Source: Eledone cirrhosa (lineage: Eukaryota). Taken from it: 64,000 bases of DNA. A model generated the notes under the pieces. It had not been told where the DNA came from and did not search any database. It saw only the letters and a list, made by a program, of their open reading frames with translations. The position numbers were made by a program, and so were the translations under genes. This document shows, piece by piece, positions 2,646 to 53,314 of this stretch (position 1 is its first letter; every line of letters begins with the position of its first letter). The stretch lies in contig OZ024743.1 in assembly GCA_964016885.1 (NCBI GenBank), positions 350,486,001 through 350,550,000 of the forward strand. The letters run 5' to 3'.

Positions 2646-3799
2646 GCCATGCAGTAGCATCAAACTAAGAGATTGTGCTACGTTCTACGGTTACATGAAG
2701 CACATATTAAATAACTCGGGGAAGTTATGAACATCACAAATGACTAAATATAGGTGCTCCAAAATTACATCTGGGACTGACTTTCTATTACATCACGACA
2801 TTTAACCGTCACTGATTTGAACTAAACATTGGGTTTCAATTACTTTTAAAAATCCAATACAAATTGGCTGGGAATAATGAACAGTTTCGCACATATGTAT
2901 ATATTTGTATGTACGTGTCTGCAGTATGTATGTGTTTTATAATTGTGTATGTAATGTATGTGTGAGAGAAAGAGAGAGTTTGGGTTTGGTGTATGTAATG
3001 TATATATTTGTGTATACGTGTCTGAAGTATGTATGTGTTATAGTTGTGTGTGTAAATGTATGTGTTAGAGAAAGGGAGAGTTTGGGTTTGGGTTTGGTGT
3101 ATGTCATGTGTATGTTTGTGCGTGTGCGCGCGTATGTGTGTAGTTTCATCGCGATAGTCACGCTCCGTTGAATCTTTTACCTTGGCAGAAAGAAGAGACA
3201 ACTTGAAAATTCAACGCCTTTCGTACAATTGTCACGACCACATACCATCCCTTAACTGCTCCCGCCCATAATACGACTTCCACACTATCACCACCATCCT
3301 TAAGCAGCAAGTGTCTACCCTACCGCCTCCAAACTACTCCAATGAGAAACATTATAAAGCTTACTTTTAAATCTTAATTCAAGCACATTAACCCATACAG
3401 AATACCAGGTTTCTAATATATTTGATCATAGATCTGCTTGATAGCTGCTTTGGGCTAACCTGGGGTTAAACATCATTGTCCGAATACCATTAGTTATAGA
3501 CCAGCTTTGGATCTAAACAACATATAACCCGCACTATTATCTCCACCAATGCCTCACAAGAACAATCACACCTTTCATACCATCATCACCGCCGTCACAA
3601 ACTCTACCGCTATCATTAGCACCACCACCACAACCACTACACTAATACCACTATTAGAACAACGGCTATCAATACCTACAGAAGAAATATTAGAACTCAA
3701 TAATACCACCTTTACCATCATCTAAACAACCACCACAATCCATACTACTCATATTAAAACTACTACCACTACTACAGCCAGCACTACCTCGAGAAATAG

Positions 3800-6287
3800 T
3801 ATAACTCAAATTATCAATAACACCAAAGCCTACACTACTACCACTATCAACTTTACAGTTACCACTGACCATACTACTATTACTACTACTACCACCACCA
3901 CCATTACCGCTATCACAATTACCACAACACCCAGAAGAAACTTTATAACCTAAACTATCAATAACACCAAAGCCTACACCACTGCCACTATCAACTTTAC
4001 AGCTACCACTAACCATGCTACTACTACTACTACTACTACTTATACCACCACGACCACGACTACTACATTATAACCTAAACTATCAATAACACCAAAGCCT
4101 ACACCACTGCCACTATCAACTTTACAGCTACCACTAACCATGCTACTACTACTACTACTACTACTTATACCACCACGACCACGACTACTACATTATAACC
4201 TAAACTATCAATAACACCAAAGCCTACACCACTGCCACTATCAACTTTACAGCTACCACTAACCATGCTACTACTACTACTACTACTACTTATACCACCA
4301 CGACCACGACTACTACATTATAACCTAAACTATCAATAACACCAAGCCTACACCACTGCCACTATCAACTTTACAGCTACCACTAACCATACTACTACTA
4401 TTACTACTACTACTACTTATACCACCACGACCACGACTACTACATTATAACCTAAACTATCAATAACACCAAGCCTACACCACTGCCACTATCAACTTTA
4501 CAGCTACCACTAACCATACTACTACTATTACTACTACTACTACTTATACCACCACGACCACGACTACTACATTATAACCTAAACTATCAATAACACCAAG
4601 CCTACACCACTGCCACTATCAACTTTACAGCTACCACTAACCATACTACTACTATTACTACTACTACTACTTATACCACCACGACCACGACTACTACATT
4701 ATAACCTAAACTATCAATAACACCAAGCCTACACCACTGCCACTATCAACTTTACAGCTACCACTAACCATACTACTACTATTACTACTACTACTACTTA
4801 TACCACCACGACCACGACTACTACATTATAACCTAAACTATCAATAACACCAAGCCTACACCACTGCCACTATCAACTTTACAGCTACCACTAACCATAC
4901 TACTACTATTACTACTACTACTACTTATACCACCACGACCACGACTACTACATTATAACCTAAACTATCAATAACACCAAGCCTACACCACTGCCACTAT
5001 CAACTTTACAGCTACCACTAACCATACTACTACTATTACTACTACTACTACTTATACCACCACGACCACGACTACTACATTATAACCTAAACTATCAATA
5101 ACACCAAGCCTACACCACTGCCACTATCAACTTTACAGCTACCACTAACCATACTACTACTATTACTACTACTACTACTTATACCACCACGACCACGACT
5201 ACTACATTATAACCTAAACTATCAATAACACCAAGCCTACACCACTGCCACTATCAACTTTACAGCTACCACTAACCATACTACTACTATTACTACTACT
5301 ACTACTTATACCACCACGACCACGACTACTACATTATAACCTAAACTATCAATAACACCAAGCCTACACCACTGCCACTATCAACTTTACAGCTACCACT
5401 AACCATACTACTACTATTACTACTACTACTACTTATACCACCACGACCACGACTACTACATTATAACCTAAACTATCAATAACACCAAGCCTACACCACT
5501 GCCACTATCAACTTTACAGCTACCACTAACCATACTACTACTATTACTACTACTACTACTTATACCACCACGACCACGACTACTACATTATAACCTAAAC
5601 TATCAATAACACCAAGCCTACACCACTGCCACTATCAACTTTACAGCTACCACTAACCATACTACTACTATTACTACTACTACTACTTATACCACCACGA
5701 CCACGACTACTACATTATAACCTAAACTATCAATAACACCAAGCCTACACCACTGCCACTATCAACTTTACAGCTACCACTAACCATACTACTACTATTA
5801 CTACTACTACTACTTATACCACCACGACCACGACTACTACATTATAACCTAAACTATCAATAACACCAAGCCTACACCACTGCCACTATCAACTTTACAG
5901 CTACCACTAACCATACTACTACTATTACTACTACTACTACTTATACCACCACGACCACGACTACTACATTATAACCTAAACTATCAATAACACCAAGCCT
6001 ACACCACTGCCACTATCAACTTTACAGCTACCACTAACCATACTACTACTATTACTACTACTACTACTTATACCACCACGACCACGACTACTACATTATA
6101 ACCTAAACTATCAATAACACCAAGCCTACACCACTGCCACTATCAACTTTACAGCTACCACTAACCATACTACTACTATTACTACTACTACTACTTATAC
6201 CACCACGACCACGACTACTACATTATAACCTAAACTATCAATAACACCAAGCCTACACCACTGCCACTATCAACTTTACAGCTACCA
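3800..6287. repeat. Tandem minisatellite array: 3 x 125 bp + 15 x 127 bp + partial unit, preceded by a diverged proto-unit
   Basis: Marker TAACCTAAAC at 3946, 4071, 4196, 4321, 4448, 4575 ... 6226. A/C-rich on +, with an internal (CTA)n. Confidence 0.95.
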
Positions 6288-6639
6288 GAGTCCCCATTAC
6301 TAATCCTAATATTACCAGTGCTACTACTACCACTATCACAACTGTTGCTGATGCCACTGCTACTACTGCTGCTACTGCTACTGCAGCTTATGAGGGCACC
6401 TTTCACGGTCGTTCGATTTTCTAGAAATAACAGCCGTCCTCATATCATCACATACTATCATTTATATTTGTTTTGGTGTTTGTTTTTAATAAAAGAAAAG
6501 ACACATTCGGCAACCTAGTCATAGATGTATAAAATGACAGGATGGGAGTAGCCAGGGATGAACAACAACTGCAACCTCTATAGAAGTAAGCTCTTTCTGG
6601 TCGAATGAACTGTTAGTAAATGCAGCCAAGATTCCACAG

Positions 6640-15028: not shown

Positions 15029-15420
15029 ATATATATATATATATATAAGTAGTCATCCTACAAAATCACCGTTCTTGTAATTATTAGGCTGATTTTAATT
15101 CCTTTCACTTTTATTGGGAGATATAAATGCCAATGCAATAGTTTTATTGTGCGCTTCTATTGCTTACCCAAGCATAAAACAGCGTTAAAAGGGCGTTTTA
15201 GGTTTTCTCTTTATTCTGAAGTTACGTTTCTCTCCGTGTTTTCGATTGAAATAAAAGTGCCTTGCCTTGATATGCTTGTTCTTTTTTTTGGCGGGGGGGG
15301 GGGGCATTGCGATAGCACAATTAAAATATTGTGTTAGTGCTCGCACTGTTTTTTTATATACAGAGATGTATCATCCAAGGAAGGAGAATGCTTTCAAATA
15401 TTTATTATTATTATCATTAT

Positions 15421-15605
15421 TGGTAGATTGGCAGTATCGGTAAAGGGTTGGACGCCATGCTTTGTAGCATAGAGTTACGGCCCTTTATGATCTGATTTCA
15501 AATTCCGCCGAGGTTAACTTTGCCTTTCATCCTTACGGGGTCGATAAAATAAAGTACCAGTAATGCACTGGGATAATTGCTGGCCTTCTGCCAAAAGTAG
15601 AAATA
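15421..15605 (+). mobile_element. Abundant tRNA-derived SINE family copy flanked by (TTA)n
   Basis: Core GAGGTTAACTTTGCCTTTCATCCTTACGGGGTCGATAAAATAAAGTACCAGT, repeated many times in the window. Confidence 0.85.
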
Positions 15606-15850
15606 AAAGAAATAATAATTATTATTATTATCATATTATGGACGCACTTGTGTGAAGGTTCGTAAATTTAAGCTGTTTTAAAGTATCATTTTTTGTATTT
15701 TCTTGTCGATAATGAAGCATAAGGTACCCACCTCGGTTCCAAGGGGGGGGGGGAAACCTCTCAATATTCACGTTTTAAGCCCGAATATTCAGATTTATTT
15801 TTAAAAACTCAGAAAAAAAAATCGCTTCTCCATCAAAAAAAAAAAAACAT

Positions 15851-15895
15851 ATGGAAAATTTCGACCTTGAAACAGCCACTATAGATCTCACCGCA

Positions 15896-15972
<77 letters not shown>

Positions 15973-16945
15973 AGACAAGCCTGTCGCCCATCCCACTGAA
16001 TATAAAAACTAAACACAAAAGTTACCATCACAACCTTTTGTGATAGTAGCAGTACGATCTCGAAATGACATCACTACCTCCGCCGCCGCCCAGGCGTGGA
16101 GGTTAATTAAACGAGAGAAGTCCTGAGCAATCCTGACCATCCCGGACGGGGAAATAGCGACCATGCAAAGGAGGACGGTGTACTTTCGATGCATTTCAGG
16201 GCAGCCAAGCAGAGGTTGAGGTTGCTTTGGGGTGTATCGGAAGTGACATCGAGTACAAAGCAAGGGCCAAGTAGTTCGGTGCCATCTCGGTACTGTTCAA
16301 AACCGAGGCCCTTGCTATTAAGCAATCAGTGACGCCTGCAGAACGGAACGCATTATCATGCACCCGTCCCACATGGGCAAAAGGACAGTAAAGGTCCGCA
16401 TTCCCAGGATCCCACCAGTAAGGAACATATGGTGGCTCCTTGGATGCGTAATCGAGGAGAGGACAGACACTACCCTCCTAGATATCGAAGGGACAGAGAG
16501 AGAAGACTGGTCCGGAATGGATTTGGAGATTCTTCTCCAAATGAAACCAGAGGACATCAACAACATCCCGGATTTTGCCCGCCTGCAGGACGGGACAACA
16601 ATCCAATTAATCACTGAGGGAAGAAGGCCGCACTGCTTCGTCTGCGGGGAAGCAACGCATCTGCAAGCCTTCTGCCCTCAACTCAAAAATGCAGGGGGTC
16701 GCAAACCTCCTTTGTTGCCAACGCCAGTGTCAGCACGGAAAGCTGCACCACCACCACCACCACCACCAACAAAGACATGGGTAACCCGACCAACATCAAA
16801 AACAGCCGGACCACCACCAGCACCGAAACCAAGCAAAGGGGAAAACGAGGAAAGCTCTCCCACTCCCATTACCCCTCCAATTATACAAAACAGACACAGA
16901 CACACTCACAGCCACAGACCCTTTGTCTTCCAGCAGCAAAGATGA
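15851..16945 (+). pseudogene. ORF1a, Gag-like nucleic-acid-binding protein with CX2CX4HX4C knuckle (disrupted)
   Basis: ATG context AAAAAAACATATGGAA; QRRTVYFR block; KRTVKVRIPRIPP...EDWSGMDLEILLQ...ITEGRRPHCFVCGEATHLQAFCP, then a Pro/Thr-rich tail. Confidence 0.8.
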
Positions 16946-17190
16946 AGGAAAACCCCAAAGTGCCAAAAAACAAGAGAAAACTCAGCCCCCAAAAAGCTCC
17001 AACAAAACACAAAAACATACACAACAAAACATACAGACATCACTAACGCAAACACTTCCCCAATAACATCAGCACCAACATCAACATCAACACCTCCCCC
17101 ACAATCCCCGAAACGCAAACAACCTAAACAAACACAAGAACAAATAAACACACAGATACCTGAAATTGCAGACACCACACCTACAACAAC

Positions 17191-19201
17191 ATGGATAACA
17201 CAAGAAAGAGAGAGAGCGCTGTCAGACAACACAGAGAGAGGGAGACTTTGTCAACATATAAACAAGACAGCGTTCTAGCGAAGGTAAATATAAAAGAAAA
17301 TATTACGAAAGAAAAGAGGAACAATTTCATTTTTAATTATATAGTTACAGATTTAAAATTACCAAATATTTCTAACAGAAACAACACCAACAATAACACG
17401 AACAACAACATCATCAATAACAACAGCAACAACAAAAATAACAGCGATAAGGTCGAGAAAGACAATAACAATGACAATAACAACAGCCACAACAACAATA
17501 ATAGTAGGAACAATATCAACAAAAACAACAATAACAACAGCCACAATAACAGTAACAACAGCAACAGTATCAACGAAAACAACAACAACAGCAACAACAG
17601 TACCAACGAAAACATCAACAATGACATCGATACATGTAACAGCGATCTCAGCACCACCAGCAGGACCAGTAGCGGCAGCAATAGTGGTGCCGCTGAAAAA
17701 GGGACCACTTCTTTTGCAGGTGTGACCCGAAATATCGAAACAGTGTTAGTCCCAGAGGAGGAGATGGCAGTCGCAAGGGCCATGGTGACAAGAAACGCCA
17801 ATAGAGTTTCCCTGAAACCTCCACCCGATTTTTTCAAGGATCAGCAGCTACGGACAGTGACTTACCGCACCGTAAGCAAAATGTCTCATCGGGTGGAGGG
17901 CCCATGGAGGCTCAAATCCCAAAGGCCTTGGGTGCGTCTGGGCGCGCAAAACCCACACCACCCGAGGCAGAAAATATGCCACAGTGGACGTACTTTTCGC
18001 TACCCCCAAGAAGCGAAGTCTCACTCTTTGGAAACCTTAAAGAGTGAGGAGTTAGTCTTGGTGCCCTCCTACTGCGGGCAGAAAATTGTGAGGGTCAAAG
18101 TGACCCAGGTCCCGTCCGACGTGCCCATACCTTGGCTGGCCGCGTCTGTCCTTGCTGGAATCGAGGACAGGACGACCATGCTGCAAGTGGAGAAAATAGG
18201 GAGAGGGAACTGGTCAGGTATAGGCATGCAAATATTTATACAAACTGACCAAGAGTGTATCGACGTTATCCCCGATATCATAGACCTAGAGGAAGGACTA
18301 CAACTTCCTATAAGCGTGGAAGGAAGATGGCCAAAATGTTATCTCTGTGAATCAAAGGGTCACCTCAGGGCCTTTTGCCCGCAGAAGACAGCGAAGAAGA
18401 AGACCCCCCTCCTTCCAATGCCTGGTCTGCTGCTACCAAGAGCAGGGCAGGCAACAAACGCAGAAGACCCTTCCATGGTGAATAGGAGGGCAACGACCGT
18501 GGCACCCGTACCAAGGCCATGGACAACTAAAGCAGCAGCATCAGTGGCGGCAACACCAGTAACTACATTTGCAGTAGCTGCACAGCAACAAAATCTCCGG
18601 AGAGGGCTCCACTACCACCACCAACAGCCGTGGAGCACATACCCCTGCCAGGCGCCACGGAATCCGACATGGAGTCTGAGGCGGAAGTGAAATGGGAAAT
18701 GGTCTGCCACAAAAAGCAAAAGAGAAAAAACCCTTAGCTTCACCCTCCAAAAGTGAAGGCAAACAAAGAGGGGAAAAGGCTGCAAGGCGACTCGCAGCAA
18801 CGCCACCACCATCACCACAAACAACCACCACACCACCACCACCGGCATCACCACAAAATTCAACATCTCAAACGTACCCAACAGCAGCAACAAGAAGACA
18901 GCAACAAAACCAAACCACCCCCAAAACATTACACAGCCGTAAACTTATAAAGCAGCACACAGACATTACGGACAAAAATTACTACACCCCACCAACACCA
19001 AGAACTCTTCCGAAAAATATAAGCATTATTGAAATTAAAATAGGACCTTACAAACATTTAAAAGAAAAATTCCCCAACGCAGTTGGAGACTTCAGAGGGT
19101 CAATTACCAGGAGGATATACACCGACATCATCTTGGAGACACCCATGACGAGCCAAAAGGACGGTTCAACTGTCCCTTCTCCACACGATCAGGGTAGGTG
19201 A
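17191..19201 (+). pseudogene. ORF1b, second Gag-like ORF with Asn-rich N-terminus, CCHC knuckle and conserved C-terminal domain (frameshifted)
   Basis: QLRTVTYRTV...QKIVRVKVTQVP...NWSGIGMQIFIQ...VEGRWPKCYLCESKGHLRAFCP. C-terminal LKEKFPNAVGDFRGSITRRIYTDI lies in ORF 18692-19201. Confidence 0.85.
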
Positions 19202-22200
19202 TCCTTTCTCACTTACTCCATTCCTCACCGAACATTTCCTTACTTAGAATAGGCAGTATAAATGTACGTGGCCTGGGGTCATCTTGGAAGCAGGGCCACC
19301 TGCTTAACGATCTCAGGTCACTAAACATAGATGTGGTGGCCATCAGTGATACCAGAATCTCCGAAGTACGAGCCTTCGCACCGATCTTCGGCGGCTACGA
19401 TGTATACACATCTCCCAGCCGTCCGGAAGCGGGGGCGGAGTTGTGCTTTTTCAGAGAGGCTTGGATCTCGCCATATGGGCCATCTTCCTGGACCCAGATG
19501 GTAAGTCGGTGGTGCTGGACGTGACCGGCAGCGAAGGCAATGCTTTCAATCTAGTAGCCGTCTACGCTCCAACAGAGGCAGGACCGCCAAATTTCTTCAG
19601 ACGTCTAGAGACCTTTCTTGGAACGTCCCGCTCTTTAGTGTTAGTGGGTGACTGGAACGGTATCTTAGATGCACGCTGGGATTACGTGGGGCTAGTAAAT
19701 AAGGGAGGAGGATGTAAAATCCTCATCAACCTGCTCAGACGTTTTCAACTGTTTGACAGGTATCGACTGGATTATCCGAATGTACCAATGTGGATATGGG
19801 CAAAAAGCAATGTGTGATCCAGATCGTATCTAGATAGGGTATTGTGTATGGAAACAGATAAGGTTAGCGTAGGTTGTCCACAATTTAAAGTAGTCGGCTA
19901 CTCCGACCACAAATTTGTGATCTGTGAAGTCGACTTAGATAGACTTCACAGGCAAGGACCAGGTTACTGGAAGCTGAACGCGTCTTTCCCGGCGTGCAGA
20001 GCTTACAGAGACCGGATAAGCGAATTAGTTAAGCGTGCGTTGACGGGTGCGATTGTCAACAACAGATGGTGGTTTACCCTGAAAAGGGCAATTAGAGTAG
20101 AATCAATAAGGTTTAGCAAAGGAGTAAAGATAGAGGAAAATAGAGTAGAAGGAGAGCTAGTTAGAAAGCTAGAAGAGGCGTTTAGGACAGGCATCGCAAC
20201 CGACGTGTTTGCGGCAAGATTGGCACTCGACCAATTCTTCAATGCAAAGCACGATGGCTGCGTTGACAGAGCTAGAGCACGTGCTCTAAGACAAGAGGGG
20301 ACAAAAGCTGTCCAATGGACCCTGGTGGTGGAGGCGCGACGTGGCAACAAAGCCACATTTCAATCCTTGCCTGACCGAACCCGAGCAGATGTGAAAGGCT
20401 TTTCAGCAGCACTTTGCTCAACTGTTTGGGAGAGGCGGCGGGCGATCGGAGTAAGAACTTCTGTGCATACCTCGAGCGACTGCCGCAGCTCTCGCTGTCC
20501 GCAGTGCAGTATTGCGAAAACCCGATAACAGCTGGTGAAATACGGGAAGCGATGTCTGACTGCACGAGGGGCAATCGCCAGGTTTGGATGGTCTGCCCTA
20601 CGAGCTTTATGCGTACATGCCAGACTTGTTCGGCGACCTCTTGGCAGACGTCTACTGCAACTGGTAGCAGAACGGGAGCATTCCCAGTTTTGTGAGCCGA
20701 GGAGCGGTTGCGCTGTTGAGAAAAGACCCGAATAAAGGGGATGTTATAGACACCTTCAGGCCCATAACTCTCTTAAACAGACTTCAAGATTTTGGCCAAG
20801 GTGTTAGCAACGAGATTGGCGCTTGTCGTCGGTAATCTGCTAGGAGAGACACAGATATGCGCCATTCCAGACAGATCCATCCACGACAACCTCCACCTCA
20901 TGCGATACATCATAGAGAGAGTGGTTAAGGAACCTGGCACGGGTGATCAATTTAGATCAATCTAAGGCATTTGATAGGGTCGACCATCGGTACCTAGCGG
21001 CGGTCCTCGAGGCGTCTGGTTTCGGGTCCATTTTCAGGGGTTGGATCGCTGCGATGCACAGCGACATCTGCTCATTTGTGAAGGTGAACGGTCATCTGTC
21101 ACAGCCATTCAGCATCATGCACTTGGTCCGTTATGGTTGTCCCCTCTCGTCACTCTTGTACGTATTGGCCCTAGAGCCGTTACTGCATAAATTGGAGGCG
21201 ATGATAGACGTTCCACGCGAACTTGGATGTGGGAAATCCGTATCGGCTTACTCCAGCGACGTCACCGTGGTGGTGTCAAACACCGGACATATCCAGAACT
21301 CGGCAGCGCTCTCAAGGCATATGAATCAGTGACAGGAGCAAAGTTAAACCAGGAAAAGTCGGTGGGTTTGCAGCTCGGCACCTGGAGAGGCAAGTCCATG
21401 CCGTCCGACAGCGTCGTGGGGCGAGGATGGAAGGACCGGTTTAAATTGCTCGGGGTTTGGTTCGGTCCGGACCTCCAGATGGAGAAAAACTGGAGCGAGG
21501 CGACGAAGAGGGTTGCCTCTCTCACCCAGAAATGGGCCGAGAGGAAGCTGTCCCTGAAAGGTCGGGCAGAGGTGACGAATGCGTTCATCGCATCCGTCAT
21601 CTGCTACCGCCTAACCGTTGTGCATTGCCCCGGCCCAACTCTGACAAAACTGGAGCGCCTCCTCTTCCGCTTTTTATGGAAGGGACGTGCTCCATCTGCT
21701 GTCAACACCCGTTGCGTGGAGGGCTGGGCATGCCGTGGCTGATGGTGCGCAAATATGCACTGAGGCTGCGACATCTCTGGTGCTTCCTTGACGGGGAACA
21801 AGTGTGGTCGCCGTTCGCCAGGCACGTTTTCCCACAGCTCGTCTCCTTAACGGAACTCCAGTCCTGGGTCAAGAAAAGACCGAGGTATAGGCTTGTAATC
21901 TGGAATATCTCCAGGCGCTCACTACCCTCTTCCAGCTGGGCACCAGTATCGGTGGAACATCCACATCGGCGTTCTATAGAGGATTAGTGGAGGGGAAGAG
22001 CGACGACGTTCTTGGAGAGATCCTGGGCGTCGAATAAAATCAGCTGTTTGCTCTCTTCCGGGGAACTTTCAGCCCAGGGCCTATGGATAACTTCCAGAAA
22101 TCCCTGGCCTGGCAGTGCTACTGAGGAGCTTTGACGGTTCGAGATTAGCTCTACAGGCACGGAAGTGCGGCAGCCGAACCTGTCCGAGATGCGCGCAGAG

Positions 22201-22534
22201 TGACGGAACCGTCGTGCACGCACTCGTTCAGTGCCCGAGCATTGCTGACTTGTGGAGCTATGTCGAACAGTTTTCCTTCGAGGAGGAAGGGCAGGCGGTT
22301 TTCATCTGCCTGGTGGCCATGGCGAAAGAGATTGTGTGGTGGACAAGGTTGAAAGAGTTAAAGACAGACACTTTCCTCTTCGGCGAATCCCTGATTAACT
22401 TTTTCAAGTTTCATTTGAACAGGAAAATCAGGGTGGAGAGGCAAGTGCTGTCTTCTAGCAAGTTTGTTGAAAGGTGGGTGAATATAGCGAGAATGGTCCG
22501 AGTGAGCGGGACCGCTCTGAATATACGCTTATAG
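19198..22534 (+). pseudogene. ORF2 (APE endonuclease, reverse transcriptase, C-terminal Cys/His finger), multiple stops and frameshifts
   Basis: RIGSINVRGL, VAVYAP, LVGDWN, YSDH, GPGYWKLN, LDQSKAFDRVDH, RYGCPLS, YSSD (degenerate YADD), CPRCAQSDGTVVHALVQC. Confidence 0.92.
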
Positions 22535-23287
22535 TTTGAGGAATGGAAAAAAATTGAGAGGGCGCTTGCCCTGGTGGTCAGGGTGGCTGTGGTCTTTTGT
22601 TTGGTTTTCGCCACGAGTAGGAAATTTTCATTTTTATTGTTTATATATGGTATATGTTTCTATGTCTTTTTTCTTTTTCGTTTCTGATATAAATAATAAA
22701 AAATCTTTACACGCACAAAACCCACATCGTACCGTCCTGTACCGTACTGTGCCATATGTAATGTTTTTCTGATGTCAGCCCTTGTGGCCAATAAAGAAAT
22801 AATTATTATTATCCTCCTTTCTAGTCATGTGTAGTGACACTACTACCTTCCCTCTCTTAACAGGAGGTAGTGAGAGAATAGTGGTGGTAGCGATGATGGA
22901 GTGGTGACGGTGGTGATGGGGTAGTAGTACTGTAGTGATGGTATTGTTGCTGCTGTTGGTTTGTCTCTAGCTAAATTTTGTGGTAGTGGTGGCGGCGGTG
23001 GTTGTGGTGGTGTTGGTGGTGAAATTATTTGGCTGTTGTTTTCTTCCATTTATGACCATTTGTAACTATTTTCTTCTTTTGACTATAACATTTCTGATAC
23101 AAAATTAAAATTTGAGCAATATACCAGAGTGTTACGTGTTGTCACTTCAGGAGAGTTAAGACTAGTTTCTTATGTCCCATTTGTAATAAGAATTATTCTA
23201 TCACAATTGTTTTAAATATGTAAAAAGTCAAAACCTTACGGGAGCGATTCCATAACACTCTATCCACCATCTGCGTAATCTTCCCTA

Positions 23288-23318
<31 letters not shown>

Positions 23319-23530
23319 GGCGACCTACGTAGTAAATCGTATCATCGTGAGCTCCACAAAGGTTTGTTGTTTCCGTTTGTTAAAAATTGCCATTTATGGA
23401 AAATTTTATTGTTAACTGTATATAAGCGCACATACATTGTTTTCCGAAAAGGACACCCCAAAAGATTGGGGCCTTGTGCCCAAAATTTAAACATTTATAA
23501 TTATCAAAAAAAATTTATTTGAAAAAAAAC

Positions 23531-25456
23531 ATGGAAGTCTCACAGCCACACGAAGCTGACAGCCTTCCACATAAACTAACACCTCACACCGACACCACCA
23601 TTGTAAATATTACTACGTTTGCCAACACAAAAAATTTAAGCAGTAGCAATATTTTAAATTTGTCTCAGACAGACATTCATTTCCCGCCATTACCAATGAC
23701 TGCAGGTGTTAAAGCCGCCACCACCACCACCACGGCGACAACCACCACCCCCACCACCACCGCGACAACAGAAACAAAAGAAGAAAAAATAAATTAACTC
23801 GTGATGTCGAAATGAATTCAACCAAAATGGACTCTTCCACATCGAACACCACTGACGTCACCACCAACACAACTGAAACTAAAATTAATAATAACAAAAA
23901 TAACGATAACAACAACAGCAACAATGACAATAAAAAAGCACCCTGAGTTTTGCCAGAGTAGCAAAACAGTGCGAAGCATTTCAGGTAACTCAGGAGGAAT
24001 TAGAAAATGCCCCCAAAATGGTAAAGAAAGATGGGTACAGGGTCAGCCCCCCCCCCCCCCCGCCTAATAAAATGGAGCATCGGCGCCTATGCACCGTGTC
24101 GTATCGAACAATTAATGTAAAATCGCGCCGAGTGGAACGTGCATCCGAGTCCCAAATCCCAAAAGCTTTGGGACATGTGTGGGCAAGAAAAACCCACATC
24201 AGACGTGGGCAGAAGTATGGAACCGTGGACGTGTTCTTTGAAACACCAGAGGAGGCTAGAGAACACTCCATGGCCCCATTAAGAAGTGACGACTTCACAC
24301 TCGTCCCAAGATATTGTGGCCAGAGACTCGTAAAGATCAGGGTGACCCACGTTCCACCGGCCATGGAAATTCCCTGGCTAATAGCGGTCGTCCTCGCCGG
24401 CATCGAAGCCAACACCAAGATAATAGCAATAGCAAAAGAAAAGCAGGAGAACTGGTCCGGATCTGGGATGGAGCTCCTGATCCAAGCAGACCAAAAAGCA
24501 TTAAGGAGATTCCAGAGGTAATAGACTTCACTGACGGCAGCCACCTCACCGTAATTGTCGAGGGCAGAAGGCCTAGGTGTGTCGTTTGTGGTGAAGGAAC
24601 CCACCTCTCCTACCCACCCCAGTGACTCAACCATCAACACCACCAGTAGCAGAGATGGCAGCAACAACTGTAGCAGCAACAACAGAAGCAACTATAATAG
24701 CAACAACCCCAGCAACAGTAACAAAACCAACACCACCACTACCCAACGCTTCAGAACTAGCACCAGCGCCTACACCATCCACCACGCCACAACCAAAACT
24801 AACGCCTGTGGAGGATTTTCCACTCCCCGACCTATCACAACTGGAGACAGATTGTGACGACGAGGAGTGGGGAAACGGTATCAGGAAAAAAGAAAAAAAG
24901 AAACCAAAAAAAGAAAATTTCTCTTCCTTCCCCCTCCAAAAACAAAATACAGAGGGAAACAAATAAATTAACAAACAAAAAGGTTAGGACAGATATGCCA
25001 CCATCCACACCAGCATCACCAATCCCATCACCCCAAACACCAACACCATCACCATCATTAACCCCAACTCCACCATCACCTACACTACAAAAGTCACCAA
25101 AATGCGAAACAGAAACAAACCCACAACAAACGCAAACAAAACAAAACAACCAAAACGATACACACTACACAGCATTAAATTTGAACAACAAGCAATTATT
25201 ACACTACATCCAACACAACACCAGCATCACAGAAAAAGACTACACAACAACCCAAAAATTCACACCACCTCCACACATACAAATCACTCGCATCACACAG
25301 AAAACGTATATGACACTAAAAGAAAAATTCCCCAAAGACATCGGAGACTTCCAACAAGCACTCTCCAGGAGGATTTATAAGGACATCCTTCCGGAGGAGG
25401 CCACAAGCAGTGAAAAGGATGGAAAAACCGTCCTTCCTCTACGAGAAGTAAGGTAA
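23531..25456 (+). pseudogene. LINE copy 2 ORF1 (frameshifted)
   Basis: AAAAAAAACATGGAA start; RRLCTVSYRTI...RLVKIRVTHVPP...NWSGSGMELLIQ; VEGRRPRCVVCGEGTHL; C-terminal LKEKFPKDIGDFQQALSRRIYKDI. Confidence 0.85.
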
Positions 25457-25490
25457 GTGGTCTTTCCCATCTTTTCCACTCCATTTCAAT

Positions 25491-28400
25491 ATGACCTCAC
25501 TCAGAATAGGCAGCATAAATGCGCATGGCTTGGGGTCGTCATGGAAGCAGGGCCACCTGCTCAACGACCTCAGTCACTAAACATAGATGTAGTGGCCATC
25601 AGCGAGACCAAAATCTCCGAAGCACGGGCCTTCGCACCGATCTTCGGCAGCTACGATGTGTACGCAACTCCCAGCCGTCCGGGATCGGGGGGAGGAGTTG
25701 CTGTGCTTTTTCGGAGATGTTTGGATCTTGCCATACGGGCCATCTTCCTGGACCCAGAAGATAAGTTGGTGGTGCTGGACATGACCAGCGGAGACGGGCA
25801 AGCTTTCAGGTTAGTGGCCGTCTATGCCCCGACAGGAGCAGGGCGGCCTGATTTCTTCCGGCGTCTGGAGGCCTTTCTTGGAACGTCCCGCTCTTTAGTG
25901 TTAGTGGGCGACTGGAACGGGATCTTAGATGCACGCGGGGATTGTGTGGGATTAGTGGATAGGGGAGGAGGGTGCAAGAGTCTCACCAACCTGCTCAGGC
26001 GTTTTGAACTGTCTGACATGTACCGATTGGATTTCCCGAATGTACCAATGTGGACTTGCACAAATCGCATAGGGTCATCCAGATCATATCTAGATAGAGT
26101 ATTTTGTAGGGAAATAGATAGGTCTAGCATAGGCTGTCCACAATTCAAGATAGTCAGCTACACAGACCACAAATTCGTGATCTGTGTGCTTGACTTAGAT
26201 AGGCTTCATAGACGAGGACCCGGATGCTGGAAGCTAAACGGGTCCTTACCAGCGCGCAAGGCCTACAGAGACCGGATTAGCGAACTAGTTAAGCGGGCGT
26301 TGACGGGGGCCATCGTCAACAACAAGTGGTGGTTTGCTCTGAAAAGAGCAATTAGAATAGAGTCCATTAGGTTTAGTAAGGCTTTAGCAATAGAGAAAAA
26401 TAGAGCAGAGGGAGAATTAGTTAGAAAATTAGACGAGGCCCTTTGCAAAGGCATCGCGACCGACGTACTTGCGGCGAAATTGGCCCATGACCAATTCTTC
26501 AATGTAAAGCACGAAGGCTGCGTTGTCAGAGCTAGGGTGCGTGCTCTCAGACACGAAGGGACGAAAGCCGTTCAATGGGCCCGAGTGGCGGAGGCTCGTC
26601 GTGGCAACAAAGCCACGATCCAGTCTTTGGTGGACCACGACAGGCGCATGCTACTCGATCCCGGGAAAAATGTGTGAAGCTTTTCAGCGACACTTCGCTC
26701 AACTGTTCGGGGGCAGCGGCGGGCCGGATCGAGGGATGGACTTTAGTGTCTACCTCGACGGCCACTGAAGCGGAGTGTTGCGAAAAGCCGATAACAGCCG
26801 CTGAAGTACGGGAGACAATGACTGGCTGCACAAGGGGTAAATCGCCTGGTTTGGATGGTCTGCCCTATGAACTTTACGTACAAATGCCAAGACTTGTTCG
26901 GAGGCCTCTTGGCGGACGTCTACTGCAACTGGTAACAGAACGGGAGAATTCTCAGCTCTGTGAACTGAGGAGCGGTGGCGCTGCTGAGAAAGGATCCGAA
27001 CAAGGGGGATAACATAGATAATTTTAGGCCCATAACTCTGCTAAACACAGAGTTCAAGATTTTGGCCAAGGTGCTAGCAAAGAGGTTGGCGCTTGTCGTT
27101 GGTGGTCTGGTGGGAGAGGCGCAGACATGCGCCATTCCCGACAGATCCATCCACGACAACCTCCACCTCATGCGATACATCGTAGAGAGGGTAGCTAGGG
27201 AACCTGGCACGGGTGGGTCTTTGATCAATTTAGATCAGTCGAAAGCCTTCGATAGGGTCGACCATCGTTACCTAGCGGTAGTCCTGAGTGCGGCTGGCTT
27301 TGGGCTCGTCTTCAGAGGCTGGATCACTGCCATGCACAGCGACATCTGCTCTGTGGTGAGAGTGAACGGTCACCTTTCGGAACCGTTCAACATCATGCGC
27401 TCGGTACGCCAGGGATGTCCCCTCTCGTCCCTCTTGTACGTATTGACTCTCGAGCCATTACTGCACAAACTGGAGACGTTAAGGGGAGTCCCGCGCGAAC
27501 TAGGATGCGGAAGATCCGTGTCAGCATATGCGGACGATGTCACCGTAGTGGTGTCGAACGCCAAACACATCGAGGCGATCGGCACTACACTAAGAGAATA
27601 CGAAGCGGTGACAGGAGCAATGATCAACCAGGAAAAGTCAGTGGGCCTGCAGCTCGGCACCTGGAGAGGCAGGTCCATGCCGTCCAACAGCGTCGTCGGG
27701 CGCTGGACGGACGGACCGGTTAAATTGCTAGGGGTCTGGTTCAGTCCGGACCTCCAGACGGACAAAAACTGGGACGAGGTGACGAGCAGGGTGGCTTCTC
27801 TCACCCAGAAATGGGCCGGGAGGAAGCTATCCCTGAAAGGTCGAGCGGAGGTGGCTAACGCGTACATCGCGTCCGTCATCTACTACCGCCTGACCGTCGT
27901 ACCTTGTCCTAATCCCCGCCTGACTGCGCTGGAGCGTTTGCTCTTACGCTTTTTGTGGAAGGGACGCGCTCCGATGGTCAGGCGGTCCATCTGCTGTCAA
28001 CACCCGCTACGTGGAGGGCTGGGCATGCCGTGGCTGATGATGCGCAGACACGCGCTCAGGCTACGACATCTCCACCTCTTCCTCAACGGTGATCAGGTGT
28101 GGTCGCCGTTTGCTAGACGCGTCTTTCCCCAGCTCGTCTCCTTGACGGAGCTGCAGTCCTGGGTGAAGCAAAGACCGAGATGGAGCGCTTGGAGACTGGA
28201 ATGTTTTCAGGCGCTCACAGCCATCGACCAATCGGGCAATGTGATCGGTGGAAACTCCACCCTGGCGTTCTATAGAGGATTAGTAGAGGGGAAGAGCGAC
28301 GACGTACTTGGAGAAACTCTAGGCGTCGACGAAAATCAACTAGCCAATCTCTTCGGAAGGACTTTCGGGCCGGGGCCTATGGACAACTTCCAGAAATCCC

Positions 28401-28894
28401 TGGCCTGGCAGTGCTACCGGGAAGCTTTGCCAGTTCGGGATAAACTCTACAGGCATGGAGGTGCAGTCATCCGGGCATGTCCGAGATGCGCGCAGGGCGA
28501 CGAAACCGTCCTACACGCACTCGTCCAGTGTCCGAAAATTGCTGACTTGTGGGTTTATGTCGAACACCTGCTGTCACGTGTAGGACGGATCCAGCTATCA
28601 GCTGAGTCCATCGTGAGGATTGCCCCGCCCTCTTCCTTTAGCCGGGAAGGGCAAGCAGTTTTTATCTGTCTGGTGGCCATGGCGAAAGAGATAGTATGGT
28701 GGACACGTTTGAAAGGGCTGAAGACGAGCACTTACCTCTTCGGTGATGCCCTGATTAACTTTTTCAAATTTCATTTGAAAAGGAAAATCAGGGTAGAGAG
28801 GGAAGTGCTCTCTTCCCAGCATTTTGTTGAAAGATGCGTGAGAGAAGCAAGTATGGCCCGAGTGAATGGGCCTACTCTGAGTATGTGTCTGTAA
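25491..28894 (+). pseudogene. LINE copy 2 ORF2 (endonuclease-RT); RT-to-end part (26975-28894) open for 639 aa
   Basis: ATG 25491 MTSLRIGSIN, frameshift near 25572; FRPITLLN, LDQSKAFDRVDH, VRQGCPLS, YADD, GGLG, CPRC..ETVLHALVQC; stops at 26933 and near 26966. Confidence 0.93.
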
Positions 28895-29136
28895 ATTAAA
28901 GATGGATAACTGGGAGAGGGCACTTGCCCTGGTGGTCAGGGTCACTGTGGTCTTTTAATGGGCTTTCTCCACAAATGTCCCTCGGAAGTCTCCTCCCTAT
29001 TGGGGAATCTTTCTTTGTTATTTTATTACATCCTCTGTTTTTTTACACGCAGAAATGCCCATTTCTACCGTCCTGTATTCTCCTGTACTGTCCTTAATGT
29101 CTACTTTATGTGAACCCTTGTGGTTAATAAAGAAAA

Positions 29137-29173
<37 letters not shown>

Positions 29174-29268
29174 AACGACAAGTATCTGAGCGTCAGCAAG
29201 AGAGTCGAACTTTCCCAAGCACTACAGTTGTCAGAAACCCAAATAAAAACTTGGTTTCAAAACAGAAG
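29174..29268 (+). CDS. Abox: Homeobox exon (homeodomain positions 22-53) of an ANTP-class Abox/ceh-19-like transcription factor
   Basis: ttcag|AAC...AGA AG|gtaaat encodes [31 protein letters not shown](R). DKYLSV.KR..LS and IKTWFQNRR match the ceh-19/CG34031 (Abox) family from recall. Too short for the ORF track. Confidence 0.9.
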
Positions 29269-30298
29269 GTAAATATTATTGTTGTTGTTTTCGATATTTT
29301 GTGATAAATGTGGAATTTCCTCTCTTTTCCCTTCTACTTGTCTTCCTCCCCCCTCTCTCCCCATCTTCCTCTTTCTCTATCCATCTGTTTTCTTTTGTTT
29401 TATACCAATCTCTTCCTTTTTATTGCTACACCAGCGCGGTACAGATTTCCATCAAATGACATTTTTCACCGAACTGTTTTTTATAGAAATTATTTTTCAT
29501 CAACACGACTTTACATAAAGGCAATTTCTTTTAGGATAATAGCAGAATTTGTTTGGCAACAGCATCCACTACAATATTATTGCCACTTCATCATAGATGG
29601 ATAATTCATTTCCAGATAATGAAGAATTTCCCTCAAATCATTGTAGCAGCTTCTATGTCGTCACTTGATCTGCTAGGAATGGCAGCAAAACATCATTAAA
29701 ATCATACCCCAGCATCATCAAATATACATAAATACATTGGTCAATGTAGTGCCTGATACACAAAGGAAAATGTGGTAGTAAATACTGACCGACTTTGAAC
29801 AAATCTATTAAGTCAATCTAAGCAGTATTGAAGGGTGCCGAGTGTACCTGAACGCAAGCGGTGAATTGGTAAAGTCGTCAAAATGTATGAAAAAATACCT
29901 TGTGACAAAACTAATGAACGATACAGAAGGTTTGGAGAGGGGATATTTCCATGCATGAATAATTGATGATGCTAAACTTAATCAATCGTTCGATTGAACA
30001 CCTCCACCTGACTCTTGAATTACTTTAGTAGTAAAGTCGTCTGCCACAAGCATTCGACCTAGGTCTTGCTCTCTTTTTTCCACCAGTCTCTAAAAGACCA
30101 TAAACAACATATATATATATATATATTTTCAGTGTGGTCTACTCTTGGTGGTAGGGTCCGTCTCGTAGATAGAACTCAATGTATTTCAATGGCGTGTAAT
30201 CCAGTAAAATCCATAGAAAATTTCCGATTCCACTGAGTTAATTCCTTAGATACAGAGTCAGATATTAGCTATTGAATTAACAACAAAGTGAAATTAGT

Positions 30299-30564: not shown

Positions 30565-33500
30565 CTAGCAGAAGTACCCGGCGCAGCCCGGGTGTAAGTC
30601 GACCTTTGCTCTGTTGTTAAAATGTGTGAAAATTACTTCCCGCGCATCACAGGTGTAAAAACCTTCGAACCTCAAGGAAAAAAACAGAGGTTAGTAGACG
30701 CAGGTGTGTAATTGAGCATAAATAATGGATCAATTGCAGGTTCACAGTGTATCGTTGAAATTGTTTTTTGCACAACTGAAATTGAATTTTCAGTTGATTT
30801 TTAAAGCAGGGTGAAAAAGACAGTTTTCAAAAAAAATCGGACGTTCCTGTAAAAGGTTTTCCCATGTGCAACTTTGTCTTATTTTTTGCGCAAAGTCGAA
30901 CCCCTGCTTCAGTTTTATTGATTTTTTACATGAATGCGTGACCTCTGAAGTAGATTTGAGTAGCTAAAAACCTGTCCCGGTAAATTTGCTATAGGTGAAA
31001 AAAAGTTGAACAAAATTGTGTCTAGGGTTATTGCCCTTTGCAACAGCCTCAACGTGTCTTCAAGTATGGTTTGTTAATTTGTGGAACTAAATCGACTTTC
31101 GTCAAATCGGACCGAGAAAACAATGTTTCCATTTGTCTTTCTAGCTGGTGTACCCGGTTACACTCGGGGTTATAAGGCGCTGGATTTAAACGGGTCTGCG
31201 CTAAATTCCAGCAGGATGCTTTAACCGAAATAAATGAAGAACAAACGTTTCTTTTTGTGCTCCAATCTGTGATATTGGTATTTTGAAAAAATAGTCCACA
31301 AACATCCATGGAGCATGTGTAAAAAGCTATGAGAAAAAGGGTTTTCGATTCTCCATTCATAAGATACCAAAACATTTCACGCAAATAAACCGGGATTTTA
31401 AGGCACTGCCCAATTCATAGCTGAAAGGTAAGAATCAAGTGGAATAATGTTTTGCGACATTGTCAAATGTACAACCGAACAAAAGCAAAGGATATAGCCA
31501 TTGAAATCTAGGTAGACCAAAGAATTTGGTGGGATTGTATATCAGAGGATTGTTTTCCTTGTGATTCGCGTCTAGCCTACAAAGCGAAGTTAGATGATTG
31601 TAGTCGGTGTTGTATCAATAAAAAATAAAAGCATACGGAAGACTGAACACTTACGAATTAAGTGAAAATCACGTTGATATTCCTATCGGAGCAACATGCA
31701 CCGAAAAACCTGACGGACTGTTGTGTCAATATTGATATCATAGAAATTACGAATGACCGACCTCTAAGATGTAATGGATAGGCCTTGGAGGTGAAGAGGA
31801 AGAATTAGTACAATTTTTTAGCTGAACATGTTGACCATTAATTTAAATAGACTTACGCAGTATCATCGTGCGGTTTTTTTGTTTATGGCCTAGAATGAGG
31901 GCCGGTTAAAAGCGGCAGAAAAATAAGCCATGCTGGTGATGTTTAGGGGCGTCGTAGGGAATAGATGCGGCGTTGTGAGTCAATTGTGAGGACAGTGGAA
32001 GGCACGCTGATCGCTTGAGAAGACGCGATGCTACACAGGATGCTTCTCGGCCATAATTGACAGAAAGGCATGTCAAGAGAAATGAAAGAGTTGCTATTCA
32101 CCCTTTGCTTAGCATGATGAACATGTAATTAAAAAGATTTATCATGGACTAGGGATGCAACATGATGAGGCATGACGTAACGGCAGGGTGCATGGCGGCT
32201 GACAGGACGTGGATGCGGCATGCCAATTGAGTTGCACCTCGGGAATGTAGAGAGCACCAGGAGGCACGATGATTGTTTGAGAAAACCGGGTGCAAGGCAG
32301 GATGTTTATCGGTCATCATAATCGGTAGGCTTTGGAGGACAAAGGGATGAATTTTTGTTTAATTTTGTTAAATATGGTCAAAATGAATGTAAAAGACTTA
32401 CACAGGATCGTATTCATGTTCGGTGCTGTCTTTGGTCTGAGATAATGGGCGGTTATGTGCGGTGCAGGAATAAACCATGCTGATGACATTTGAGAAAGTT
32501 GCTGATAGGGCAGGAATGCCGCATGTTGAGCCATGGCAGTCGTGAGGGACCAAGGCGTGCGGGCAAGGGAGAGGGCAGGGGTTGACAGTGGCAGAGATGC
32601 AGCTTGGTTAGGCATGACAATCTTGAAGGAGCACGGCGGGCAGGCAAAATAAAGGGCTGAGGAAGGGATGGCGGCTGACAGATCATGGATGCGGCATCGT
32701 GAGGCATAACGATGCAGTGGGTCGACGGCGTGCAAGGGAGGGAGATGGCTGAGATTGACGGTTGCAGGGATTCCGCATGGTGAGCCATGGCACTGGTGAA
32801 GGACCAAGGCGTGCGGGTAAGGGAGGTGGCAGGGGAGGGCATGGCGGCTGACAGAGCATGGATGCGGCATGGTGAGGCATGACGATGCACTGGGACGACG
32901 GCGTGCAGGGAAAGGAGAGGGTAGGACTTGATGGTGGCAGGCATGCGGCTTGGTTAGGCATGGCAGTCTTGAAGGAGCACGGCGGGCAGGAAAAAGAAAG
33001 GGCTGAGGAGGGGATGGTGGCCGACAGGGCAGTAATGCGGCATGGTGAGGCATGACGATGCAGTGGGACGACGGCGTGTAGAGAAGGGAGAGGGCAGGGG
33101 TTGACGGTGGTAGGGATGAGGCTTGGTCAGGGATGGAAGTCTTGAGCTCTCCCGGAGTGTAGGCAATGGAAATAGGCAGGGATGGACGGTGGCAGGGATT
33201 CGGCATGTTGAGCCGTGGCAGTCCTTAGGGACCACGGAGGGCAGGCAATGGAAAGGGCCGAGGAATGAATTGCGGCTGACAGGGCAGAGATGCGCATGGG
33301 GATGCACAACGATGCAGTGGGTCGATGGCGTGCAGGGAAGGGAGAGGGCAGGAGTTGGAGGATGCCTCATTATGCTACGGTAGTGGGACCACGGGAATGA
33401 AGAGAGCGCATGGAGGCTCGATGATCGCTTGAGAAGACTGGGAGCAATACAGGATGATGCGCGGCGGTATAGTCTTGATAGTCCTTATATAAGAAATGGA

Positions 33501-41097: not shown

Positions 41098-41305
41098 GAC
41101 AAAATGGAAGAAACAGTTGGCTTCTCGACTGAAATTAGCCCAGAGACAAGGGATTTTACCATCTGCCTACTGGAATGCAGCCTTCCCAAGCTATACAAAT
41201 ATTTTTCAACCTTACCCTTCTTCAAATCTCTCTGATCTATCATCAAATCAAACAGCTCAGATTCAACCGTCATCGAGTCTCTCGTTTGCAATGAATCTCA
41301 GCTAA
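41098..41305 (+). CDS. Abox: Last coding exon of the Abox/ceh-19-like homeobox gene
   Basis: Long pyrimidine tract + tttacag|G ACA AAA TGG. The phase-2 join with 29268 gives WFQNRRTKWKKQLASRLKLAQRQG...MNLS*. AATAAA at 41339-41344. Confidence 0.92.
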
Positions 41306-47324: not shown

Positions 47325-47415
47325 ATTTGAGGAAAAAAATAAGTATTTATTTATGTCTAATATTTCTTCTTACTTTATAATATATATATATATATATATA
47401 CAGTATATATATATG

Positions 47416-47506
<91 letters not shown>

Positions 47507-47545
47507 AATAATGGAGCTGCGGCGTTGCAAATGGGTTACATATGA

Positions 47546-47896
47546 AAAAGTGAGTCCTTCATCAGTGACCCTCCAACCGTCCTAGGCATTTCATCGCTTT
47601 AAGGGCCATATACCTCAGGTTGGTGCGAACAACGGCTAAAAAAAGTCGTTGGGACACGTAAATAAAGAGAACGTTAGGGTGAACAAACAAAATGGTTTAA
47701 GCAACAGAAAGTGAGAAGAAAGAGACAAGTCCCAGATTTCTATGAATATAAACTCGATAAAATCGTGAACGAGAGAATAAAGACCATCAAACCTGGTTGA
47801 AATGTGAGCAAGGAAGGAATTTCGCAGTGGTCTAACGGGGGGAAGAAGAAGGGGTCTGGTCTGCGAATTCGGTAAACATAAGTTCTGTGAAGTCGC

Positions 47897-47994
<98 letters not shown>

Positions 47995-48455
47995 AAATTC
48001 ATACCGGCTTGGCCAAGAGTGCGCGAGATAAGTAATCGGACAGGTCAAGCGGGAAGAAAGAGGAGAGGAGGAGAGGTAGTGACAGGTTTTTTCTCTCTCT
48101 CTCTCGTCTGCGACTTCACAGAACTTATGTTTACCGAATTCGCAGACCAGACCCCTTCTTCTTCCCCCCGTTAGACCACTGCGAAATTCCTTCCTTGCTC
48201 ACATTTCAACCAGGTTTGATGGTCTTTATTCTCTCGTTCACGATTTTATCGAGTTTATATTCATAGAAATCTGGGACTTGTCTCTTTCTTCTCACTTTCT
48301 GTTGCTTAAACCATTTTGTTTGTTCACCCTAACGTTCTCTTTATTTACGTGTCCCAACGACTTTTTTTAGCCGTTGTTCGCACCAACCTGAGGTATATGA
48401 CCCTTAAAGCGATGAAATGCCTAGGACGGTTGGAGGGTCACTGATGAAGGACTCA

Positions 48456-48461
<6 letters not shown>
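47546..48461. repeat. ~360-bp near-perfect inverted repeat between (TA)n tracts; each arm ends just after CTGATGAAGG
   Basis: 47546-47910 is the reverse complement of about 48093-48461; the spacer contains (GA)n. Confidence 0.9.
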
Positions 48462-49630
<1,169 letters not shown>

Positions 49631-52232: not shown

Positions 52233-53312
52233 CCTTGTTAAGCCAACCCGGTAAGGCTAATGCTAAGTATCTTGCAAATGATTGTCGAGTCGAAGCTAGC
52301 TGATGAACAGTGTGTTTCGCTCCGGTTTAGCACAGCCGACCAAATATACATACTGCGGCAGGTTTTCGAGAAATCGTGGGAGTGTTGTCAAGAAGTATAC
52401 TCTTGTTTTGTAGACCTCGAAAAGGCATATCACCACATTCCTCGGGAACTGCTGTGGAGGTTTCTGCAGAAGTATGAGATCGATGGTCAGCTTCTTGTTG
52501 CCCTGATGTCTCTCTATGAATGCCCGAGTATTATGTTCGGATAAATGATGCTAAATAGAAACTATTCAATGTGGGAATTGGACTCTGCCAAGGGTGCATA
52601 CTGTCACATTTCCTGTTCATTATTTTCAATAACAGGATTGACATGCGCAGCCTGGTTGGAAATGGTATCACGACTTGCAAGTGTCAAATCAGTAGGCGGA
52701 AATTTGCAGATGACATGGTGTTACCTAACTCAACAGAAGATGATCTCCGACTTGCACTTGATATGTTTGTTACCGAGTTCTGCATGGCTGGAATGAAAAT
52801 CAGTGCTGCGAAAACAGATACACATCCTTTCAAGAATGCCTGTGCAGTGTACTCTACATGTAAATTGAATTACACTGAAGCAGATGGAGAAGTTCAAGTA
52901 TCTCAGGGCCGTGTTCATGAGTGATGGAAGGCAGGAGGCTGAATTAAGTGCAATAATTCGGTAATCAGAAGAAGGGAAGTAGGTGTAAAACCCTTACTAA
53001 TGGTTATGAATCTTGGGTAATGACCGAAAAAATACGATCGCGAATACAAGCATCTGAAATGGGCTTCCTCCGAAGGGTCTTTGGAGTAATGTTATTCGAT
53101 AGAGTGTGTAGCTCGGAGATCAGAGAGTCACTTTAAGTAGAACCATTACTTCTCCGAATTGAAAGATCACAGCTCCGATTCTATGGGCATGTGGTTAGAA
53201 TGTCTCAGGAAAGAATCGGTGGACTAATTGTACGGCTAAAACCAACCGGCAGGAGACCCAGAGATAGACACTGAACACGATGGTTGGATAACATCCATGA
53301 GCTTGGGTGGTC
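52233..53312 (+). mobile_element. Decayed RTE-clade LINE, RT and C-terminal part
   Basis: DQIYILRQVFEKSWE..FVDLEKAY, GLCQGCILS, FADDMVL, QLRFYGHVVRM. Confidence 0.85.
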
Positions 53313-53314
53313 TC

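Follow-up and report, generated by a model that had tools for sequence, protein, structure and literature searches.

A (TTA)n-specific L1/Tx1-type LINE has probably inserted into an older TTA-led splice acceptor of an Abox-type homeobox gene in Eledone cirrhosa

The third exon of an Abox-type homeobox gene in Eledone cirrhosa lies directly behind a TTA microsatellite, into which an L1/Tx1-type LINE has probably inserted. For the window, i.e. the whole stretch of 64,000 nt analysed here (OZ024743.1, 350,486,001–350,550,000), we favour with good confidence the reading that a (TTA)n-specific family of this type entered an Abox acceptor that was already TTA-led and that the insertion was tolerated; with an AG-free TTA tract retained beside the CAG, splicing of the exon probably continues. 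The arrangement described in the original prediction was recovered in the sequence, with AATAAA at 29126–29131, the LINE end at 29138, a perfect ATT/TTA run at 29138–29170, CAG at 29171–29173 and the exon from 29174. The sense orientation of the LINE was confirmed as well, since ORF2 with its APE, RT and zf-RVT domains lies on the + strand. The features around the acceptor are as follows.

23288 to 23318, + strand: TTA tract at the LINE C 5′ junction, left part of the target, register TATT/G
23319 to 29138, + strand: LINE C, a full-length (5.82 kb), broken L1/Tx1-type element, the youngest in the stack
29122 to 29131, + strand: candidate branch motif GGTTAAT (29122–29128) overlapping AATAAA, read from the sequence
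29139 to 29173, + strand: (TTA)10-TT-CAG, which serves both as the target microsatellite and as the intron 2 acceptor
29174 to 29268, + strand: exon 3 of the Abox-type homeobox gene, 95 nt, homeodomain residues 22–52
41098 to 41305, + strand: exon 4, end of the homeodomain and C-terminus, with an ordinary pyrimidine-rich acceptor

The gene was traced with P0002, its Octopus orthologue, as tblastn query against the window together with the 200 kb that precede it. Four exons were found in order, at approximately −30030 to −29630, −24522 to −24419, 29174–29268 and from 41098, and intron 2 measures 53,592 nt (53.6 kb). All four exons are intact, as are the splice sites inspected, in agreement with the earlier statement that both downstream exons (29174–29268 and from 41098) had been preserved. 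Exon 3 matches PF00046 positions 22–52 (domain search, E 3e-12), is identical to Octopus P0002/P0004 at 32 of 32 amino acids (tblastn) and is followed by a GT donor at 29269. Exon 4 agrees with P0002 at 66 of 69 residues (tblastn), and exon 1 is only 74% identical to the Octopus proteins, the closest named relatives of the host protein. The length of exon 3 is 2 mod 3, and skipping would shift the frame. The region 29171–29330, comprising the CAG and exon 3, is single copy, with one match from one candidate in a search of the genome. The assembly therefore holds no instance of the 3′ transduction that had been proposed for this exon.

Judged by diagnostic residues and distribution, the gene would fit the Abox type. 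Criteria given for this family are E19 with R/K30, E17-R52, and EH1 and EH2 motifs (bioRxiv 10.1101/2023.03.14.532566), and Drosophila CG34031 has been placed in it (PMC10726417). The Eledone cirrhosa gene shares the E19/K30 pair as well as E17 and R52, which were read on P0002 and are the same in the Eledone cirrhosa exons, and exon 1 carries EH1-like and EH2-like motifs (judged by eye). Homeodomains are 77–87% identical across protostomes and ambulacrarians. No vertebrate appears among the named top 120 homeodomain relatives, and the database names of the relatives vary (ceh-19-like, ceh-28, Hox-B5-like and others). Orthology to ceh-19 is not claimed because no link between Abox and ceh-19 was found in the literature covered, where descriptions of ceh-19 do not place it in Abox. 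In Octopus bimaculoides, residues 5–28 of model P0001 match the LINE C group (62% identity, E 1e-4), as do residues 23–94 of model P0005. As both models begin with such peptides, related LINEs are probably present in the same gene of that species; the peptides themselves may be annotation artefacts or chimeric transcripts.

The exon order also bears on the notion of an assembly chimera at the TTA tract, which we hold to be extremely unlikely. It is true that the junction falls in a microsatellite, that neither a read nor a contig was observed across it, and that X1 has no contig over the exon, a hole in coverage that proves nothing. Still, exons 1–2 upstream and 3–4 downstream belong to a single gene, follow the exon order of the Octopus orthologue and are joined by gap-free sequence, and the only gap in 264 kb lies 61.5 kb upstream of the window, upstream of exon 1, the window itself being free of N. 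Furthermore, both unique flanks end in TTA and each occurs once, and the tract is only 33 nt long.

A domain search of LINE C ORF2, which is broken and split across frames, identified PF03372 (APE), PF00078 (RT) and PF13966 (zf-RVT). The best PDB matches were to human L1 ORF2p (E ~1e-31), with R2 proteins at 1e-9 to 1e-13. Among 120 listed protein relatives, mostly without names, were “Transposon TX1 149 kDa protein” and a Tetraodon pol-like protein, and the ESM Atlas added only RVT_1/zf-RVT look-alikes. Based on this predicted architecture of N-terminal APE, L1-like RT and C-terminal zinc finger, the LINE C family is assigned to the L1/Tx1 group of non-LTR retrotransposons. It is numerous, with at least 3004 candidates for the 3′ end and at least 2151 for the 5′ end in the 3.0-Gb genome. 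Dong/R4 elements possess an R2/R4-type RT without an N-terminal APE, and a restriction-like endonuclease. A Dong/R4 identity of LINE C was rejected in view of its N-terminal APE and an RT that is L1-like, the element being far closer to human L1 ORF2p than to R2. The two have in common the microsatellite class (TAA/TTA) and the presence in octopods: Dong elements target TAA microsatellites and are grouped with APE types in a review (PMC3812793), and Dong-R4 has been reported in Octopus (PMC13282606, PMC9115989).

The insertion preference of the family was read from the flanks of 29 further 3′ ends and 29 further 5′ ends, the best scoring among 3004 and 2151 candidates, respectively; these are the nearest copies and do not represent a random sample. 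A TTA tract stands directly before the element in 29 of 29 copies, phase matched in at least 11 of 12 letters, and the register TATT/G recurs at the 5′ junction in 28 of 29. The tail of another family member precedes 13 of the 29 5′ ends. On the 3′ side, TTA follows at once in 28 of 29 copies, the median perfect run being 29 nt, and poly(A) was found at the 3′ junction in none of the 29. The hits L005 and L038 belong to one copy, and L013 and L052 to another; both copies have TTA at either end. Occurrence of the target repeat in >20% of flanks has been used as the criterion for LINE target specificity (PMC4494074); the LINE C family exceeds this value by far, as judged from the best-scoring copies of thousands, and is a microsatellite-specific LINE with near-absolute (TTA)n specificity among the sampled best copies. 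The fixed register in 28 of 29 copies is suggestive only of an endonuclease that cleaves the TTA repeat specifically. All 15 tracts of at least five units in 264 kb read TTA on the + strand, and 13 of them are located at element ends.

In its mode of insertion LINE C is most likely comparable to Kibi and Koshi, Tx1-clade fish LINEs that insert into (TC)n and (TTC)n, with crocodilian Tx1 families found in (TTCC)n/(TTTC)n (PMC4494074); the lineages are likened here by their features. Shared traits are an ORF2 that combines APE and RT with a zinc finger at its C-terminus, insertion into a microsatellite that then borders the element at either end, and sequential tandem insertion at the target. 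Conversely, LINE C is distinguished from Kibi and Koshi by a target that reads (TTA)n on the sense strand of the element, by its octopod host, and by the fact that the target is also a splice acceptor. A description of a TTA-targeting Tx1 family in octopods was not found in the literature covered, a scope distinct from Repbase and Dfam-type libraries. For Octopus vulgaris, 13 L1-Tx1 families have been counted in a study whose main text lacks the word “target” (PMC13282606), and its repeat library could already hold the LINE C family.

The flanks also speak to the origin of the acceptor tract. According to the original prediction, the LINE abuts the exon with no intervening host DNA. This does not hold, because TTA lies 5′ of 29 of 29 copies and a contig of a related species (organism B, see below) aligns through 29155–29173; the tract is therefore target DNA, older than LINE C, and not just LINE tail. 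The opposite view, in which the LINE itself supplied the TTA tract as its tail, the normal acceptor was replaced, and the branch point is now LINE-derived (GGTTAAT), appears very unlikely to us. Insertion may add part of the tract, within the last 60 nt only GGTTAAT matches yUnAy in full, and TTA-led acceptors look rare, with 0 of 30 sites host-exon-like by eye; against this stand the TTA before every sampled copy, the tract at the acceptor in the related species, and the finding that the “displaced intron” is a repeat. The branch-point part of this view may be true on its own.

Upstream of the acceptor, 15402–29170 is occupied by a stack of repeats of 13,769 nt (13.8 kb), nearly all TTA-flanked, which lies within intron 2 between unique flanks. 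Its layers, in addition to LINE C, are given here.

15060 to 15401, + strand: single-copy host intron DNA (one match from one candidate in the own genome), ending at a TTA tract
15402 to 15419, + strand: outer (left) TTA tract, partly decayed, read from the sequence
15420 to 15635, + strand: SINE-like high-copy repeat, ~200 bp, ending in a TAA/TTA tail; it recurs several times in the window and also at loci L082-L092
15640 to 17186, + strand: LINE A, from a related family, with the 5′ UTR and a decayed ORF1; of 500 candidates the best apart from itself is 91% identical
17187 to 22799, + strand: LINE B, ORF1, broken ORF2 and 3′ UTR with AATAAA; 3′ ends of copies are followed by TTA tracts
22813 to 23288, + strand: repeat X, a 5′-truncated interspersed repeat whose tail is 23272–23289

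Before the stack arose, the acceptor tract was probably preceded by the single-copy segment 15060–15401. This flank also contains, at 15340–15365, a T-rich motif that resembles an acceptor, ends in CAG and lies 37 nt ahead of the outer TTA tract. The original prediction had instead taken 23272–23289 for the original upstream intron, which is refuted by its identity as the tail of repeat X (1014 candidates); single-copy DNA ends at 15401. A displacement by 5.85 kb did take place insofar as LINE C moved its previous neighbour, leaving 5.85 kb between the TTA tracts, but that neighbour was repeat X and not host intron. The 1014 candidates for 23040–23289 yielded 40 scored hits; leaving out the self hit, the 39 listed have identities of 84–91%. 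All 11 fetched copies of repeat X share ~410–520 bp and mostly the same end point in TTA/TTC tracts or other repeats. An assignment of repeat X as a minus-strand LINE 5′ end was rejected, since the copies end on the + strand in such tracts or other repeats. Most other copies of repeat X come after the SINE-like repeat and a linker of ~120 bp (compare 15420–15635 and L082-L092), and the two may form a composite element that was split here by LINE A/B.

Most other 5′ ends of the LINE A family follow TTA tracts. LINE B has accumulated many stops and frameshifts, and 7 of 7 of its copies begin matching at 17186–17187. At this position (17186/17187) the ORF1 of LINE A is fused to LINE B at its ORF1 start, with neither a TTA tract nor a LINE B 5′ UTR; a template switch or a deletion would account for the fusion. 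A much larger + strand run of the same TTA-flanked LINEs and SINEs (L068-L075) is located upstream of exon 1, from ~127 kb to 55 kb before the window begins, and at −117352 a repeat-X-like tail is again succeeded by TTA and the head of a LINE C. Other repeats in the window include a tandem array at 3714–6333 (period ~127 bp, 96% identity, strongly C-skewed), a decayed minus-strand array of ~87-bp units at 32500–33360, an inverted pair at 47344–47914 and 48092–48650 (~570 bp, 91% identity), and fragments of another decayed LINE-like coding region at 52240–54900 (ORF translations, by eye).

The layers were dated by private differences, i.e. positions at which at least 80% of the covering copies disagree with the window. 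LINE C shows 26/1639 and 26/1576 (1.6%), repeat X 14/431 (3.3%), LINE A 23/750 (3.1%) and LINE B 32/697 (4.6%), ages that rest on the nearest copies only and that subfamily structure may inflate; copies left out for short alignments numbered 5 of 29 for the LINE C 3′ part and 1 of 14 for LINE B. In organism B (run X4), one 622-nt contig aligned over 29155–29667 from its ninth letter with 56 differences. Three of the differences listed fall in exon 3, all synonymous, and counting the other 53 as intronic gives an intron divergence of 13%, or ~6.5% per lineage. As the stack parts carry 1.6–4.6% private differences against 13% intron divergence, the stack is younger than the split from organism B, which looks older than every dated part.

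The orthologous locus had been suggested as a check, and organism B provides it in part: at least (TTA)5-TTCAG is present at its exon 3 acceptor, on a contig that reaches only 24 nt upstream of the CAG. No organism B difference is listed before 29194, where differences close to the contig end may go unlisted. Summed contig depth, which is not copy number and serves only as a hint, was 294 and 345 in organism B versus 84,000 and 146,000 in X1 for two bins of the LINE C 5′ part, and 18,000 and 42,000 in organism B for two other 5′ bins. An independent element may lie upstream of the acceptor in organism B. As to insertion polymorphism, the RAD-seq runs X5 and X6 yielded nothing but spurious partial hits and lack coverage of the site.

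Selection on the gene was assessed from the same comparisons. Exon 3 of organism B has no listed amino acid change versus ~9.5 expected if neutral, and versus Octopus there is one change in 108 conserved codons. The neutral expectation since the older elements is 7.5–11 changes versus one observed (P 0.005–0.0002), and the gene has therefore tolerated the older stack under purifying selection. Since LINE C, 3.9 changes would be expected versus one observed, which is not significant (P ~0.10); intact exons are thus no proof that the gene survived the LINE C insertion, and the case for purifying selection persisting after LINE C alone is weak.

The tract before exon 3 is AG-free over its last ~36–39 nt. 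As seven UnA sites are found at −15 to −33 within this stretch, each without the −3 pyrimidine, the branch point need not be LINE-derived. GGTTAAT, as the only full yUnAy, would place a candidate branch A at −47, inside LINE C; yUnAy is the mammalian branch consensus, and the splicing rules applied here are borrowed from mammals. Use of either the tract UnA sites or GGTTAAT is possible and neither seems forced. Hence, of the earlier proposal that the branch point must now come from the LINE, the site at 29122–29128 stands as a possibility but the necessity does not. An AG occurs 4–5 nt downstream of the GGTTAAT candidate site, outside the risk zone of >6 nt (PMC9284458). With a pyrimidine content of 65% from −24 to −5, versus 80% for exon 2 and 90% for exon 4, the exon 3 acceptor is by this measure weaker than the other two tested in the gene. 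In the genome, (TTA)7-TTCAG occurs 104 times versus 54 times for the reversed control. Among the first 30 of these sites a LINE C tail lies upstream in nine, directly in eight, and none resembles a host exon (judged by eye only). The motif seems common and its coincidence with a true acceptor rare.

The insertion of LINE C placed a conserved AATAAA beside the acceptor, as originally stated: it is kept in 28 of 29 other LINE C copies and present also in related families, and the tail of the replaced neighbour, repeat X, has no AATAAA. Located 43–48 nt from the acceptor, the signal would appear to be an open risk. Cleavage usually takes place 10–30 nt downstream of AATAAA, and would here fall inside the acceptor tract. 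It is conceivable, although rather unlikely, that the LINE C AATAAA acts on the host pre-mRNA, or that the exon is often skipped, in which case the gene would be partly or wholly silenced or yield a truncated protein without the DNA-binding helix. Besides the conservation of the signal, the exon length of 2 mod 3 and the fact that selection since LINE C is not demonstrable are compatible with this outcome, as are the effects of sense L1 elements on polyadenylation and splicing that have been reviewed (PMC3812793). Such intronic insertions cause premature polyadenylation or mis-splicing (PMC3812793), and LINE C resembles them as a sense LINE with a poly(A) signal in an intron close to an exon. 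Unlike them, it sits inside a repeat that was kept beside the AG, has no poly(A) tail (0 of 29 copies at the 3′ junction) and goes along with no visible gene damage, the four exons and inspected splice sites being intact. Intron 2 contains 54 sense AATAAA, and the older sense signal of LINE B and ~50 others have been tolerated there. Finally, the donor of exon 3 lies ~140 nt downstream of the LINE C AATAAA. Suppression from a downstream donor was reportedly described by Ashe in 1997, and U1 suppresses intronic poly(A) signals within ~1 kb (PMC3826338).

Taken as favoured here, namely as insertion into an older TTA-led acceptor, the data suggest the following sequence of events. The TTA tract likely already formed the 3′ splice site of the Abox-type exon before the insertions, and L1/Tx1-type LINEs and related repeats likely inserted there several times in turn. 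The endonuclease would nick the TTA tract sequence-specifically and reverse transcription would start there, leaving TTA on both sides. The U-rich tract with its UnA sites, or GGTTAAT at −47, would serve U2AF and U2, and U1 at the donor ~140 nt downstream would keep the LINE AATAAA mostly silent. In a more far-reaching proposal, the acceptor is a self-renewing landing pad, at once splice signal and LINE target and hit repeatedly, with the LINE now acting as an alternative last exon that would yield an EH1-bearing protein without the recognition helix and thereby tune the homeobox gene; we consider this clearly unlikely.

In summary, a young L1/Tx1-type family is described from an octopod genome in which it is abundant, and its (TTA)n specificity is near absolute. 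Its insertion at the Abox-type gene suggests that a LINE with a microsatellite target can enter a developmental gene ~35 nt from an exon, and more than once, with the bases beside the AG kept because the target repeat stays on both sides. The locus would offer a clean natural test of splicing versus polyadenylation at a 3′ splice site.
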